64,000 bases of DNA from Candidatus Margulisiibacteriota bacterium (GCA_041661965.1 JBAZTH010000003.1:5107-69106), one strand, 5' to 3'. Shown: positions 46,551 to 59,954, numbered from the stretch's first letter. A program made the numbers and translations. Notes: generated from the letters alone by a model not told the origin.

Positions 46551-47870
46551 TCAGCTTAAATTCCGACGCTGCGGGATTGAGACGACGGTCCTTTCGTCAA
46601 TCACGGCCTGTGGGCGCGGGGTGACAATAGTCGGGTCTTCATTTTCAGTCGGCAGGAAGGGTTGCCCCAGCCCTTGATCGTCCCCGCTACCTAAGCTCCC
46701 AAGATAGTCGGCAATACTCCGGTGGATATCCAGGATTGCTTCTATTTTTCTGATAATATCGTGAAAATTAGGCCTCTTGTTCGGATCTTTTTGTGCCAAC
46801 CCCTGGAGCAGGGCGTTGAGCTGGCGTTGGATCGTTTTGATCTCTTTCGCGATCTCCGGCAGTCTGTCCGTATGGTAAGCGCTTTCAATCTCTTCGATCG
46901 AAAGTTTGGGCATCGGTTTGGTGAGCTGATTTTCCCAGGTCTTTTTATTGTAGACCACGTTTTTATACTGTTTATCGTTCCAGACGGTAACGCGCATCGG
47001 CGGTTTGCCGGTGATCCCTTCGGCGATAACCTGGGCCAGGCTGTAATAATCCGAGGCGGCCGTTAAGCTGGTGTAGTGACGGTCTTGATCGAGGTGGGTC
47101 TGGAACTGTTCCGGCGAAGCGTAGCTTGGCGTGCTGACATCCGCCAGGATCGGCTCGCCGATTTTTATGATCCCGCCGAAATCAAGCAGCCGGACGTTGA
47201 TCTTCTGGTTCTCCCCCATAATCAGCATGATGTTCGATGGTTTAACATCCCGATGGACATAGCCGTGGCGGTGGACTACGCTCAGCGCGTAAAAGGTCTC
47301 CATCGCGATCTCCACCATTTTATAAAAAGGGATCTTTCTTTCCATTTGGCCTTGGAGGACCGCGGCCAGGGTCAGGTCGCCTAAATCCTGGGCGATCAAG
47401 CATTCTTTGCGGGTGACCAGCGGGTTGTCCCGGCCGCTTTCGATCAGGCGGTGCTCGATCAGGCGGGGGATCCGTTCTTCGCTGGCGGTTAGATGGAGAA
47501 ATTTGGCTTCGGTCTGCATGTACGGCAGGGCGTCGCCTTCGGCGAACTTTACGATCACGCCGCAGCGTTTGACGATGCTTGGCGTTTGGGACAAAATACG
47601 TTGGAGATCCCCCGGCTGAAGAGCGCCGAGCTCAACGCCGATCTCGCTGAACCGCGAACGGTCGGTCGAGGTCAGCTTTTTAAGATCGATCGCCCGATAA
47701 ACCTGGGACATATCGCTCCGGTTCCTTTCCTCAAGGATCAGATAGCGGCCGGCTAAGGGCTTGCGGGTGACGAATGAATTATAAGGCGTGAGCGGGGCGT
47801 GAACCCAAAAACCGGACCGGCGGCCTGATGATGGTGGTGGAATTCGATTGTTCATGTGTTTGTCCTTCAT
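46551..47870 (-). CDS. Hanks-type Ser/Thr protein kinase (439 aa) with a C-terminal non-kinase region
   Basis: Catalytic loop HRDVKPSNIM, DFG, and SPEQ (APE-like) motifs. Confidence 0.8.
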   Translation of the reverse strand: MKDKHMNNRIPPPSSGRRSGFWVHAPLTPYNSFVTRKPLAGRYLILEERNRSDMSQVYRAIDLKKLTSTDRSRFSEIGVELGALQPGDLQRILSQTPSIVKRCGVIVKFAEGDALPYMQTEAKFLHLTASEERIPRLIEHRLIESGRDNPLVTRKECLIAQDLGDLTLAAVLQGQMERKIPFYKMVEIAMETFYALSVVHRHGYVHRDVKPSNIMLIMGENQKINVRLLDFGGIIKIGEPILADVSTPSYASPEQFQTHLDQDRHYTSLTAASDYYSLAQVIAEGITGKPPMRVTVWNDKQYKNVVYNKKTWENQLTKPMPKLSIEEIESAYHTDRLPEIAKEIKTIQRQLNALLQGLAQKDPNKRPNFHDIIRKIEAILDIHRSIADYLGSLGSGDDQGLGQPFLPTENEDPTIVTPRPQAVIDERTVVSIPQRRNLS

Positions 47871-47941
47871 GATATTATCGAAGAAAATAGCGGGGAATTT
47901 CAGTTTGGCTGTTTTTTAATAGCCGGTGGAGATGTGCTAAA

Positions 47942-48796
47942 ATGTCAGTTATGAAAAGAATTATTCTGTTGGCGGCGTTAACCATTTGTTTTGCCTTTCC
48001 ATTGTTAGCGCTTGGAAAGGCGACCCTCTCGACCGGAGCGATCGAACAGGGGAAGACCCTGGAAATTAAGGTTAGTTCAACTGATGGGATTGAAAATATC
48101 CGGGGAACATTTTTGGGCGAAAAGGTCCGCTTTTTCACGGCGGTTGACGGCTATCGGGCCCTGGTTGGGATCCCCCTGGAACAAAAGCCGGGGGTTTATC
48201 CGCTGGTCCTGACGTTGGAGCAAATTGAAACTCCCCCGCAGGCGATCAAAAAGAGAGTGAAGATCGTCAAAGGAAAATTTCCCGTGGTTTCTTTTTGGTT
48301 GAAGCCGGCGAAGAACAAGCTCCGCAGCCGGGAGATAATCAACAACGAATGGGCGGAAGTTGAAAAAGTCCTGGTCGTCAAAGACCCGGTCCAGCGCTGG
48401 AGCGGCAAATTTTCCTGGCCGGTCGAAGCCCCGACTTCCATGGTCTTTGGGGTGGTCCAGAAAGTTAACGGGAAGCCTTCCGGCCGTCACCGGGGCTATG
48501 ACCTGGCAGTTCCGCAGGGAACCGTCGTCGCCGCTCCGAATGACGGCAAAGTTGTATATACCGGCCGCTTGCGGGCTTTTGGCAATACGATTGTCGTCGA
48601 TCACGGCCAGGGGGTCCAGACCCTCTACTTCCACCTATCCAAATTTCTGGTTGAAGTTGGACAAGTCGTCAATCGGGGGGATCAACTTGCCTTGTCCGGC
48701 AATACCGGGATCTCCTCCGGGGCTCATCTCCATTGGGGGATGTCGGTCAACAATCTGCGGGTCGATCCGACCCAGTGGGTGAGAATGGAGTTGTAA
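47942..48796 (+). CDS. Secreted M23-family metallopeptidase (peptidoglycan endopeptidase-like)
   Basis: Signal peptide; HRGYDLAVPQGTVVAAPNDGKVVY...GNTIVVDHG...SGNTGISSGAHLHW (HxxxD and HxH zinc motifs). Confidence 0.8.
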   Translation: MSVMKRIILLAALTICFAFPLLALGKATLSTGAIEQGKTLEIKVSSTDGIENIRGTFLGEKVRFFTAVDGYRALVGIPLEQKPGVYPLVLTLEQIETPPQAIKKRVKIVKGKFPVVSFWLKPAKNKLRSREIINNEWAEVEKVLVVKDPVQRWSGKFSWPVEAPTSMVFGVVQKVNGKPSGRHRGYDLAVPQGTVVAAPNDGKVVYTGRLRAFGNTIVVDHGQGVQTLYFHLSKFLVEVGQVVNRGDQLALSGNTGISSGAHLHWGMSVNNLRVDPTQWVRMEL

Positions 48797-58072: not shown

Positions 58073-59065
58073 ATGAGTACTATACCTAACATTGGTTCCT
58101 CAAGCAGGCTTTCATCGAGATGGGTGGTTTCTTGCCCACCCTCAATTCCGGCGTCGCGTTCTTCCGGGCTTAGCCCGTTAGCGCAGAGCCTCCCAACCCT
58201 TAATTTTCATGCTTTACCGTCGATCAAAGACCAACCGATCGCCTTAAACATCCAAGGAACGCAAGTTACTTTGAGCGACAGCAATAAAATTGGCCAGGGT
58301 GGAATGGCGGCGGTTTACAAGGTTTTTGCCGATGGACGGGAGCTGGCGGCGAAATATACGAGTATCCCCAAATTGGCGGCTTTTTTACGGAAGGAAGGGG
58401 TGTTTGGTTCCCAGCTTAATTCCGCGCCTGGTTTCCATCAGGTCTACGGAGTGGCCGATGCTGGAGGAGGGGCGGTCCTTTTAATGGATTTTATTCCAGG
58501 CGAAAAAGCCTCAAGGTTGGCGGGGATTCTTCCCCAAGCAACAGTAATCAGGTGCATCAGAGACATCAGCTTGCGACTGTATGAAGCGCATTTGCAGGGG
58601 ATAATTCACCGGGACATTAAAACCGAGAATATCATGATTGAGATAGAAAACGGCCGGCACGTCAAATCAAGTTTATTTGATTTCGGCCTGGCCACGACCG
58701 TTGACGAACAGCGGCGTCAGTCCGGTCTTATGGTTGGAACGCCGGCGTTTTTTTCTCCGGAACAAGCCCGCGGTCAAGCCCTTGATCCGCGGTCGGACCT
58801 TTACTCTCTTGGGGTCGTGTTTTATGAAATGCTGACCGGGCGCAATCCAATCGATCCGAGAAATGACATGCCGGCTTATGACCTGATAAACAGTGTCGCC
58901 CTTGGAACGGTCGCCCCCGACCTCACCAAATTGCCCGTCGAACTTCGCCCAATAATCGGTAAAATGTTGGAGCGTAATCGCGAAACCCGCTATCAGGATT
59001 GCCTGGCTGTTTTTCTGGACCTGGCAACCGTCCTGGAAAACATGGGGCTCGACCCGAATTCTTAA
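58073..59065 (+). CDS. Hanks-type Ser/Thr protein kinase (330 aa)
   Basis: GQGGMAAVYKV; AAKY (Lys); IIHRDIKTENIMI; DFGLA; GTPAFFSPEQ. Confidence 0.8.
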   Translation: MSTIPNIGSSSRLSSRWVVSCPPSIPASRSSGLSPLAQSLPTLNFHALPSIKDQPIALNIQGTQVTLSDSNKIGQGGMAAVYKVFADGRELAAKYTSIPKLAAFLRKEGVFGSQLNSAPGFHQVYGVADAGGGAVLLMDFIPGEKASRLAGILPQATVIRCIRDISLRLYEAHLQGIIHRDIKTENIMIEIENGRHVKSSLFDFGLATTVDEQRRQSGLMVGTPAFFSPEQARGQALDPRSDLYSLGVVFYEMLTGRNPIDPRNDMPAYDLINSVALGTVAPDLTKLPVELRPIIGKMLERNRETRYQDCLAVFLDLATVLENMGLDPNS

Positions 59066-59108
59066 ACCGAGTGAAATTTCCCGCTCCTACCCACGATAAC
59101 TAACCGTA

Positions 59109-59954
59109 ATGCTAAAGGTTATTTTCCAACCACAACGGGCCGGGTTTTTACCGGCGGACTTTGCCGGCCGCCGGCTCTCGCCGGCCAAGAACGGCCGGGT
59201 TGAATTAGCCCAATTGGGGCGGCCGCTCCCTGTCGCGCAAGATGACGTGAAGGCCCGTCCGCCGATGATTGGTATTTATGGGCTGGTGGCAAAAATAGCG
59301 GTCGCGGTCGTTGTCGACGTCAATCATTTGCCGGAGGCGATTAAAGCGCCGTATCTTTTGGCCGGAGAGGAATTTGCCAGGGATTTTGAACAGTATCTTT
59401 CCGCCGTCGTCTTTTTTGATTCGATCAAAGGACGGAACGGCGAATGGAACAATGGTTTTGAGCTCTCCATGCTGGGGTTAGATGGGCAGTCCTTTAGCCA
59501 TTTAACGGCGGATGCCACGTCGGAGATTTCCCGGTCCGATGGTCGAGGGGTTGTTTTTTTGAGCTCTACCGCGCCCGAAGGGAACTTGATCCCGGGCGAA
59601 GAACTCCACTGGAGCCTTAGTTGGTTTATTGGGCGGCTTCGTGTCGGGAACTTACCGCTAGGGGAGACGGGCCGCGATTGCGCCGCGGCTATTTATCAAT
59701 CGAAAATGCTGCGGCATTTTATTTCCGGCAAAATGCGGACCGATCAGGGCTTTTATTATGACCCCTTGCTAAGGCAATATTTAAACTGCTTGGTCGGCTT
59801 TAACGAGCTTATTATCAGTAAAGCCAGCTTGCTGACGGAGCCGGAAAAAAACACGATCGCCGCTCATCATGAGAGGGGCTGGTCGATCGACAGCGTGATC
59901 AAGTTTAACCGAATAACCGTTGAGGGCTATCTGACTGCTCTGCAGGAGACGTAA
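59109..59954 (+). CDS. Hypothetical 281-aa protein, downstream partner of a Ser/Thr kinase; paralogue of 55251-56186
   Basis: See the paralogue. Confidence 0.45.
   Translation: MLKVIFQPQRAGFLPADFAGRRLSPAKNGRVELAQLGRPLPVAQDDVKARPPMIGIYGLVAKIAVAVVVDVNHLPEAIKAPYLLAGEEFARDFEQYLSAVVFFDSIKGRNGEWNNGFELSMLGLDGQSFSHLTADATSEISRSDGRGVVFLSSTAPEGNLIPGEELHWSLSWFIGRLRVGNLPLGETGRDCAAAIYQSKMLRHFISGKMRTDQGFYYDPLLRQYLNCLVGFNELIISKASLLTEPEKNTIAAHHERGWSIDSVIKFNRITVEGYLTALQET

Follow-up and report, generated by a model that had tools for sequence, protein, structure and literature searches.

Hanks-type serine/threonine kinases are common in bacteria, and most of them are without known inputs or substrates. Some are accompanied by an adjacent partner, as is AfsK of Streptomyces by its inhibitor KbpA, the mycobacterial Pkn kinases by FHA proteins and kinases of Myxococcus by multi-kinase-associated proteins. 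The locus described here was found in a 64-kb stretch of DNA (GCA_041661965.1, JBAZTH010000003.1:5107-69106; hereafter the window, to which coordinates refer unless another contig is named) from a Candidatus Margulisiibacteriota bacterium, a member of the Margulisbacteria, an uncultured sister lineage of Cyanobacteria. It contains four kinase genes (K1 to K4), each next to a gene for a small partner protein belonging to one of two families, A (A1, A2) or B (B1, B2). The resemblance to the pairs mentioned above lies in an intact Hanks domain, in a small, adjacent and co-evolving gene, and in a partner that plausibly regulates a kinase devoid of sensor. Unlike the partners of those systems, however, A and B proteins match no FHA, STAS, PP2C or other Pfam, NCBIfam or PDB family, and the four paralogous modules are gathered within 13 kb, belong to one candidate phylum, vary between strains and share a non-canonical motif. 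We consider it moderately probable that they are ancient paralogous modules, each made of a soluble, sensor-less Hanks kinase and a dedicated Margulisbacteria-specific partner serving as its regulator or substrate, co-regulated through an alternative promoter and occupying variable slots.

Two-gene units of kinase and partner are also known from the CapK-CapS pairs found upstream of immune operons, in which CapK is a kinase of the anti-sigma-factor type (GHKL) and CapS a STAS-domain repressor (PMC13373217). The present modules resemble them in being modular and in occupying variable or accessory loci, phosphorylation of CapS being the output in that case. However, the kinases are of the Hanks type here and their partners show neither a STAS nor a DNA-binding domain; CapK-CapS, with its GHKL kinase and STAS partner, was thus rejected as a homologue and is a functional analogy only. 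The single-gene defence kinases PD-T4-6 and Stk2 and the Mad6 kinase of PADLOC do have a Hanks domain, but those systems include no A- or B-like partner and the scores obtained with them equal those of housekeeping PknB-type models. No description of the partner families, the slots or the motif was found in the literature, nor anything relevant on Margulisbacteria kinases. A kinase with an adjacent cognate partner is a known theme and the finding is not categorically new; what is new in it are two partner families so far without annotation, which probably share an origin, a fourfold expansion of the modules, their arrangement in slots and a common promoter motif.

All four kinase open reading frames (ORFs) put forward in an earlier note on this sequence scored above the gathering score of Pfam family Pkinase (PF00069, 31.7 bits; Table 1). 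Two other proposals of that note were confirmed: A1 and A2 are paralogous (28% identity over 189 columns, E 3e-11), as are B1 and B2 (29% over 303 columns, E 3e-31), the latter two sharing the motifs LAG.EFA.DF and IPGEELHWSLS. The kinase-plus-partner modules are repeated as described, and the two kinase types match the two partner families, K1 and K2 going with A, K3 and K4 with B. The statement that K3 and K4 flank the B pair had to be turned around: B1 and B2 flank the kinases, in the order B1-K3-...-K4-B2. A1 and A2 are located downstream of K1 and K2, B1 upstream of K3 and B2 downstream of K4, always co-directionally and at a distance of 43-79 nucleotides (nt), so that the partner can come before or after its kinase. 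K3 and K4 are separated by an insert with two small ORFs, neither of which matched a Pfam, NCBIfam or PADLOC family. This insert is absent from related contig L005, where the two kinase genes are 65 nt apart, and is specific to the window genome.

The same pairs were encountered in related contigs (designated L followed by a number). Adjacency of a kinase and a B gene was observed twice in the window, twice in L005 (A1-K1 ... leuD-B1-K3-K4-B2) and once each in L001 (B1-K3-leuC, the arrangement of L001-L004), L006 (A1-K1 ... leuD-K4-B2), L009 (leuD-K-B-B-leuC), L012/13 (leuB-leuD-B-K-B-B), L016 (leuD, a gene for a protein of 323 amino acids (aa), K-B, further genes and leuC), L020 (kinase fragment-B) and L022 (K-B among unrelated genes). 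Types were matched throughout: K1-type kinases with A, K3-type with B upstream, K4-type with B downstream. In L005 and L006, K1 orthologues (77-82% identity) adjoin A1 orthologues (74-76%). K3 has orthologues at 68% (L001) and 51-52% (L005), as compared with 70% and 33-34% for B1; those of K4 are at 74-76% (L005, L006) and 47% (L009), and B2 has one at 83% (L006). Pairwise identities of kinases and B proteins co-vary (Mantel r 0.87, p 4e-4, within-genome paralogues included). The recurrence of matched pairs, together with this co-divergence, indicates that kinase and partner are inherited as one unit. None of the related contigs examined has the K2-A2 pair.

Ratios of nonsynonymous to synonymous substitution rates (dN/dS) were calculated between the window and contigs L005 and L006, except where stated otherwise. 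They were 0.04 for leuB, 0.07 for leuD and 0.02-0.06 for LexA. Module genes gave 0.15 (K1), 0.16-0.20 (A1), 0.21-0.28 (K4) and 0.15 (B2), as well as 0.15 (K3) and 0.23 (B1) against L001. Judged by these ratios, the module genes are functional and under purifying selection, and their products evolve 3-6 times faster than those of the neighbouring leu genes.

As regards the kinases, comparison of the four proteins with three relatives showed H198, D200, K202, N205, D218, G220, P240, E241 and R318 (K3 numbering) to be invariant in all seven. These are the His and Asp of HRD, the Lys and Asn of the catalytic loop, the Asp and Gly of DFG, the Pro-Glu of APE and the Arg of subdomain XI. The DFG motif reads as such in K1 and K4, DLG in K2 and DPG in K3; K1 carries the HRD..K..N, DFG and SPE motifs. 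A Gly-rich loop, a beta3 Lys and an alphaC Glu were recognised in K3 (GAGGYG ... VVKVP ... IEEG) and K4 (GQGGMA ... LAAKY ... RKEG). K1 and K2, read in alignment, have an insertion of about 45-60 aa between the Gly-rich loop, degenerate in K1 (NRSDMS), and the probable beta3 Lys (VIVKFAE, VIIKCAE), and it is because of this insertion in a divergent N-lobe that their Pfam match begins only at position 70-84 of the hidden Markov model (HMM) and covers the C-lobe with part of the N-lobe. The true start of K1 is perhaps Met6. K1 and K2 are 26% identical, their unusual N-terminal region and N-lobe insertion included, and K3 and K4 30%. Tails of about 70 residues precede the kinase domain of K3, where they are rich in Ser, Thr and Pro, and of K4, where they are rich in Ser.

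None of the four kinases has a transmembrane segment (the highest Kyte-Doolittle mean over 19 residues is at most 1.5) or an extra domain, which implies soluble proteins without a built-in sensor. The PknB/Stk1-type receptor architecture, with a transmembrane segment and PASTA or sensor domains, was not found in them, model NF033483 giving 61.7-170 bits against a cut-off of 450, and the NCBIfam PknB, LanL and LegK1 matches were all far under their cut-offs (43-51 bits against 550 for LegK1). Taken together, K1-K4 are probably soluble, catalytically competent Hanks-type Ser/Thr kinases. Type II toxin-antitoxin modules of the HipBA kind were rejected as an interpretation: the kinases are Hanks and not HipA proteins, no helix-turn-helix or other DNA-binding domain was detected in the partners and the genes do not overlap.

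Families A (about 190-205 aa) and B (about 260-310 aa) had no match in Pfam, NCBIfam, PADLOC or PDB sequences, and A1 and B1 are annotated as hypothetical proteins in a metagenome-assembled genome of Candidatus Margulisiibacteriota. No FHA, PP2C or STAS match was obtained with Pfam, even at E up to 1, in A1, A2, B1, B2 and 30 further B members; 32 B members produced nothing but scattered single-member noise with Pfam, and among PDB sequences the B profile had 0 matches at E up to 10. When 1.84 billion cluster representatives were searched exhaustively with HMMER, 38 were retrieved for family B at E up to 1e-3, one of them spurious. Every B member with a source name comes from Candidatus Margulisiibacteriota. 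The spurious one, protein P0015 (4055 aa, 22 matched stretches), was discarded as a repeat-protein artefact. In a word-indexed protein search, B1 found itself and one orthologue, and A2 only itself. Scans of genome and metagenome contigs recovered the L006 contig alone, and alignments of wider scope diverged too much to serve in pattern scans. Family A has only four known members, A1, its two orthologues and A2.

The alignment of 32 members supports B as a real family of about 260 aa, with the conserved blocks P..(P)F..AG..F..D(L/F)..YC, W..GFE..M, FLN, (H)W.LS.L.GR.K and AR..FA..YQ. Near-invariant residues are mostly Pro, Gly-Phe, Gly and Tyr, a pattern more suggestive of a binding or structural function than of catalysis. 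In the AlphaFold2 model of B1 (mean predicted local distance difference test score, pLDDT, 63.5; predicted template modelling score 0.68), the helical bundle at the C-terminus (184-301) is predicted with confidence and the N-terminal alpha/beta half is resolved poorly; a Foldseek comparison with PDB and BFVD returned nothing below E 0.4. The A2 model (pLDDT 42) was too poor for a fold search. A helix-turn-helix suspected in the B segment LAVAKGLS..ARD..YQ was dropped, B2 and P0007 being without that segment.

The limits of A2 bear on the definition of family A. The JGI call (172 aa, P0003) begins too late: it removes the N-terminal TYRA.(L/V)R.Y, invariant in the family, which needs the long start, and this call is thus truncated. 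The 206-aa start, or Met4, is the one preceded by a variant of the motif described below. Columns 43-172 of family A were found to be collinear with the N-terminal half of B (columns 54-159), with an hhalign probability of 87% and E 3.7e-6; the score was 42.9, whereas none of 60 block-shuffled controls scored higher than 28.0. It is therefore fairly likely, on profile similarity, that family A is a shortened relative of B corresponding to its N-terminal half. All four modules would then stem from one ancestral kinase-partner pair.

A further common feature of the modules is a promoter-like element. Alignment of the regions upstream of K1, K2, B1, K4 and of X533, a gene located before leuB, gave the consensus TG(A/C)AATTT-N13/14-CGATAAT(A/T), which K3 also possesses. 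The strict form TG[AC]AATTT-N13/14-CGATAAT occurs 6 times in the 64 kb, always co-oriented and upstream of K1, X533, K2, B1, K3 and K4. A position weight matrix built on the two conserved blocks gave 13 hits of at least 14 bits, as compared with a mean of 0.23 and a maximum of 1 in shuffled sequences, and leave-one-out scores were 18-28 bits. The matrix added B2 and the 57355 ORF, and a scan with the core TG(A/C)AATT added degenerate copies at A1 and A2. Outside the locus, the motif marks the gene of an RCC1-repeat protein, the first gene of a nearby array of ATPase/FGE genes and a 250-aa ORF. In L001, L005, L006, L009, L012, L016 and L022 it is kept in front of genes for kinases, A, B, X and PP2C proteins and of further genes in the slots. 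No copy precedes leuB, leuD, leuC, the thi genes or the M23 peptidase gene in the window locus or in the loci of those relatives; leuB has a match to a promoter of the canonical type (TTGATA-17-TATTAT at 51403-51431).

Direct reading of the sequence identified a canonical promoter in front of the 16S rRNA gene of the same locus (TTGACA-17-TACAAT at about 44013-44041), which sets the motif apart as a distinct promoter class rather than the housekeeping consensus. Several copies end 5-6 nt before a start codon (X533, B2 and several genes of relatives), implying leaderless mRNAs. For sigma-28, the -10 element has the consensus GCCGATAA, and fliC of Pseudomonas aeruginosa has TCTAAAG as its -35 element, at -36 to -30 (PMC12784957). 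Like promoters recognised by sigma-28 proteins (FliA/SigD/WhiG; TAAA-N15-GCCGATAA), the motif has a CGATAA core lying 17 nt from (T/G)AAA. It differs from them in its -35, which is TGAAAT or TGCAAT (GAAA or GCAA) instead of TAAAG or TAAA, in having no conserved GC in the extended -10, and in preceding genes for kinases and unknown proteins in place of flagellar genes. By its resemblance, the motif may be used by an alternative, sigma-28-like sigma factor. An interpretation of the 32-nt element as part of integron-like cassettes was rejected, as it is situated 5' of the genes whichever strand they are on, and is bipartite in the manner of -35 and -10 elements.

Table 1. Features of the kinase-partner locus, its promoter-like motifs and surrounding genes
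Feature	Coordinates	Strand	Product	Remarks
Kinase K1	46551-47870	-	439 aa	Pkinase 77.6 bits (match begins at HMM position 84)
Kinase K2	53221-54504	-	427 aa	Pkinase 88.3 bits; K1 paralogue
Kinase K3	56252-57265	+	337 aa	Pkinase 122.7 bits
Kinase K4	58073-59065	+	330 aa	Pkinase 107.9 bits
Partner A1	45915-46481	-	188 aa from TTG	Family A; 186 aa in the NCBI call (ATG at 46475)
Partner A2	52521-53141	-	206 aa	Family A
Partner B1	55251-56186	+	311 aa	Family B
Partner B2	59109-59954	+	281 aa	Family B
Insert between K3 and K4	57298-58010	+		86-aa ORF 57355-57615 with Shine-Dalgarno, 142-aa ORF 57582-58010, motif copy
Motif of K1	47871-47902	-		TGAAATTC-N14-CGATAAT; kept in L005 (8610-8641) and L006 (8563-8594)
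Motif of X533	51384-51415	-		5 nt before ATG
Motif of K2	54546-54578	-
Motif of B1	55171-55202	+		TGAAATTT-N14-CGATAAT; in leuD/B1 divergent intergenic region
Motif of K3	56204-56235	+		TGCAATTT-N14-CGATAAT; kept in L005 (2215-2246), variant in L001 (1210-1241)
Motif of K4	58025-58056	+		TGCAATTT-N14-CGATAAT; kept in L005 (1089-1120) and L006 (3162-3193)
Motif of 86-aa ORF	57298-57329	+
Motif of B2	59072-59103	+		CGATAAC, 5 nt before ATG
Motif of A2, variant	53154-53185			TGAAATTA-N15-CGATGTT
Motif of A1, weak copy	46522-46553
Motif copies outside the locus	10692-10723, 38134-38165, 38230-38261
X533	49777-51378	-	533 aa	Slot before leuB
leuB	51422-52516	+		Likely start 51464; Iso_dh 314 bits; NF002898 527.8 bits (cut-off 393)
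leuD	54644-55123	-		Aconitase_C; TIGR02084 245.5 bits; LEUD_arch 216 bits (cut-off 109)
leuC, C-terminal part	63295-64000	-		Runs off the window; tblastn 88% to L001 Aconitase-family gene; best NCBIfam match TIGR02083 LEU2
16S rRNA gene, complete	44252-45745	+		Rfam RF00177 1529.9 bits; adjoins A1
RCC1-repeat protein gene	9357-10724	-		7 repeats, 291 bits
Ankyrin-repeat protein gene	20178-21083	+		In 40% GC region
Non-homologous end-joining cluster	21594-26364	-
ATPase/FGE array	26906-38098	-		First gene 37106-38098
ORF	38302-39054		250 aa

The modules are embedded among genes of leucine and thiamine biosynthesis. LeuB is 3-isopropylmalate dehydrogenase, and leuD and leuC encode the small and large subunits of isopropylmalate isomerase. 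The earlier note had the modules interleaved with these three genes; leuB and leuD do fall within the span, but leuC lies outside it and continues beyond the end of the window. A contiguous, co-directional leuABCD operon was not found, leuB being a plus-strand gene, leuD and leuC minus-strand genes, and the gaps between them 2.1 kb and 8.2 kb. Relatives have a common backbone consisting of the 16S rRNA gene, an M23 peptidase gene, thiD2-thiE, leuB(+), leuD(-), leuC(-), LDcluster4 and thiC, and this dispersed, mixed-strand order is the same in L001, L005, L006, L009, L012/13, L016 and L018. Since all relatives share it, the dispersal of leu genes is an old trait of the lineage, and the low identity of paralogous modules (about 26-30%) makes their duplications ancient events and not recent insertions. 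The picture of modules colonising a housekeeping operon is not supported as it was put, every related contig examined having the same leu dispersal. That the modules are accessory, strain-variable and duplicated was upheld; a recent invasion of a leu operon was not. The note had also named leu dispersal without kinases in related genomes as an observation that would count against it, and such a case was partly found: L018/19 has dispersed leu genes and a B gene between leuB and leuD, but no kinase. The modules are accessory genes embedded among leu genes and not parts of a leu operon.

The backbone has four slots that differ in content. The slot before M23 holds K1-A1. The one before leuB is occupied by X533, which matched no Pfam, NCBIfam or PADLOC family, by a homologue of X533 with 555 aa that takes this position in the distant relative L012 (76-1743; 24% identity, E 2e-27), by a 904-aa protein or by unrelated proteins of 240-275 aa, and these pre-leuB proteins of relatives are all preceded by the same promoter-like motif. 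Between leuB and leuD were found K2-A2 (window genome only), a PP2C gene (L009), genes for unknown proteins of 377 aa and 327 aa (L005, L006), a B gene (L018) or nothing (L012, L016). The slot between leuD and leuC contains B-K and K-B module combinations with assorted small genes. Relatives' slots also harbour PP2C (L009, 3145-4308), a toxin-antitoxin-like combination of a DUF6036 nucleotidyltransferase and an adjacent 66-aa protein (L016, 6861-7322), and a TPR protein accompanied by a GNAT acetyltransferase (L018, 3282-4672); slots thus gather diverse accessory genes. In the window itself, the ORFs that were scanned included no PP2C.

Two side observations concern the vicinity of leuC. Palindromic direct repeats of 32 nt, 97% identical (61135-61166 and 63101-63132), surround a low-GC (46.6%) segment with deoC and a membrane-protein gene, and a 47-nt copy (62940-62986, 89% identical) of the leuC 3' end (63296-63342) is located 356 nt upstream. 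Both look like insertion footprints beside leuC.

The position of B genes could be taken as a sign that B proteins, with or without kinases, regulate branched-chain amino-acid or thiamine metabolism by controlling or binding LeuB or LeuCD. They are found between leuB, leuD and leuC in 7 independent contexts with leuB identities of 79%-97%, including the kinase-less L018/19, and B1 diverges from leuD over an intergenic region of 127 nt. However, the whole backbone, from M23 and thiDE to LDcluster4 and thiC, is syntenic in a narrow lineage, and linkage of B to leu genes can result from inheritance alone. In addition, the K-B pair of L022 has neither leuC nor leuD nearby, there are anything between 0 and 4 module copies next to a constant set of leu genes, the leu genes are devoid of the module motif, and K1-A1 adjoins the 16S and M23 genes instead of leu genes. 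Metabolic regulation of this kind is very unlikely in our opinion.

Divergence within the locus is uneven. The B1-K3 segment (55251-57265), compared with its counterpart (1138-3070) in the near-conspecific L005, gave synonymous divergences (dS) of 2.75 and 1.7, as opposed to 0.5-0.7 in the flanks, and amino-acid identity was 34% for B1 and 52% for K3. Identities of leuB and leuD to their L005 copies are, against the 34% of B1, in the range 92-97%; leuB is 97% identical to the L005 and L006 copies. This outlier suggests allele replacement or strong diversification, possibly under diversifying selection. Contigs L001-L004, whose B1 is 70% identical, are four independent assemblies of one relative, and each of them ends some 200-240 nt upstream of B1, which hints at population heterogeneity or at a repeat at this junction.

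Such hyper-divergence of B1-K3 would fit modules that serve in conflict or defence, the kinase being a toxic or abortive-infection effector, the partner its antitoxin, sensor or specificity subunit, and the slots a small defence or variable island. Module content that differs between genomes of 99.8-99.9% 16S identity is in line with such an island, as are the PP2C, P-loop-like, GNAT and DUF6036 nucleotidyltransferase genes occupying slots elsewhere and the motif that precedes the first gene of the AAA/FGE-domain array close by. The kinases also match the PADLOC models PD-T4-6 (E down to 1e-52) and Mad6. However, these scores are no better than those of generic PknB-type models (176.8 bits against 170.4 for K3) and reflect the kinase domain only, whereas the partners, X533 and the neighbours match no PADLOC model, so that the full complement of a known system was not found. 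The locus is devoid of mobile-element genes, its modules are old by the identity of their paralogues and under ordinary purifying selection, and their gene order, 43-79 nt gaps and separate motifs differ from classic overlapping toxin-antitoxin pairs. We regard a defence function as unlikely.

The array itself (four family-less ORFs, two weak FGE-sulfatase matches and a 1191-aa double-AAA protein) contains no complete PADLOC system, the AAA protein alone giving hits of the AAA type. Its nearness to the modules, which the earlier note had mentioned, may matter in one respect only, namely the common motif of its first gene. The end-joining cluster comprises DUF72, LigD phosphoesterase and ligase, LigD primase-polymerase and two tandem Ku genes. 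Next to A1, a strong bidirectional terminator hairpin (45867-45895) separates this gene from the 16S gene, which is 99.8-99.9% identical to the L005, L006 and L007 copies and fills the 2-kb gap that appears gene-free in those contigs. ORFs 44045-44383 and 44644-44985 were discarded as spurious because they lie inside it. No 23S or 5S gene is present in the 64-kb window, and the 16S gene is thus unlinked.

The RCC1-repeat protein, the ankyrin-repeat protein and the four Hanks kinases make up an unusual density of 'eukaryotic-like' domains. By analogy with the LegK kinases of Legionella, the present kinases could be secreted effectors, directed against a eukaryotic host or prey or used in association with it, with their partners in a chaperone-like role. 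The RCC1-repeat gene has the same motif as the modules, the N-terminal tails of the kinases are unstructured and rich in Ser, Thr and Pro, and the LegK1 model does match, far under its cut-off. On the other hand, secretion-system genes, signal peptides and known chaperone families were not found in the window, the LegK1 scores remain a small fraction of what that model demands, and relatives seem to be environmental (groundwater and sediment metagenomes), a weak argument based on record names alone. An effector function is extremely unlikely in our opinion.

In the reading we prefer, that of dedicated kinase-partner modules, the partner would be a cognate regulator and/or substrate of the adjacent kinase, probably non-enzymatic. 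It may provide a sensor-less kinase with its input or output, for instance through contact with the kinase or with its Ser/Thr/Pro-rich tail, and may itself be switched by phosphorylation. The modules and X533 would form a co-regulated set, transcribed from promoters of a non-housekeeping, sigma-28-like class. Between near-conspecific genomes, modules are gained, lost and replaced in the slots of a backbone that can be written 16S / slot / M23-thiDE / slot / leuB / slot / leuD / slot / leuC.

Several points weigh against this proposal. L018/19, alone among the relatives, has a B gene without any kinase. Adjacency and the Mantel correlation are partly inflated because the homologues all come from one narrow lineage. 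Each partner has its own copy of the motif, and kinase and partner therefore need not be co-transcribed. The assignment to sigma-28 relies on the likeness of a motif whose -35 differs and whose extended -10 GC is not conserved. The mostly structural type of the near-invariant B residues fits a non-enzymatic role but does not prove it, and the models of B (moderate) and A (poor) are both without a recognisable fold. Homology, adjacency, co-divergence, purifying selection, the common motif and strain variability are demonstrated by the data; that kinase and partner interact physically, that the partner is phosphorylated, which sigma factor is involved and what physiological role the modules have are elements that we infer.

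A broader and rather doubtful possibility is that the kinase-partner pairs form, together with X533-like, PP2C and other slot genes, an undescribed, strain-variable regulon specific to Margulisbacteria and controlled by an alternative, sigma-28-like sigma factor, in which A and B proteins, as a new superfamily, would act as interchangeable specificity or sensor subunits of the sensor-less Hanks kinases. If this were true, the regulon might serve defence, self/non-self recognition or a developmental switch, and the rapid replacement of B1-K3 alleles between near-conspecific genomes would reflect diversifying selection. As the finding is restricted to one lineage and its function is one that we infer, its general importance is moderate. 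For a class of kinases mostly without assigned inputs or substrates, a kinase co-inherited with one uncharacterised family across a candidate phylum offers a concrete kinase-partner pair, and it brings with it two new and probably related protein families. The motif, which marks exactly the accessory genes within the backbone, may provide a handle on alternative-sigma regulation in these bacteria and a tag with which further members of the set could be recognised.

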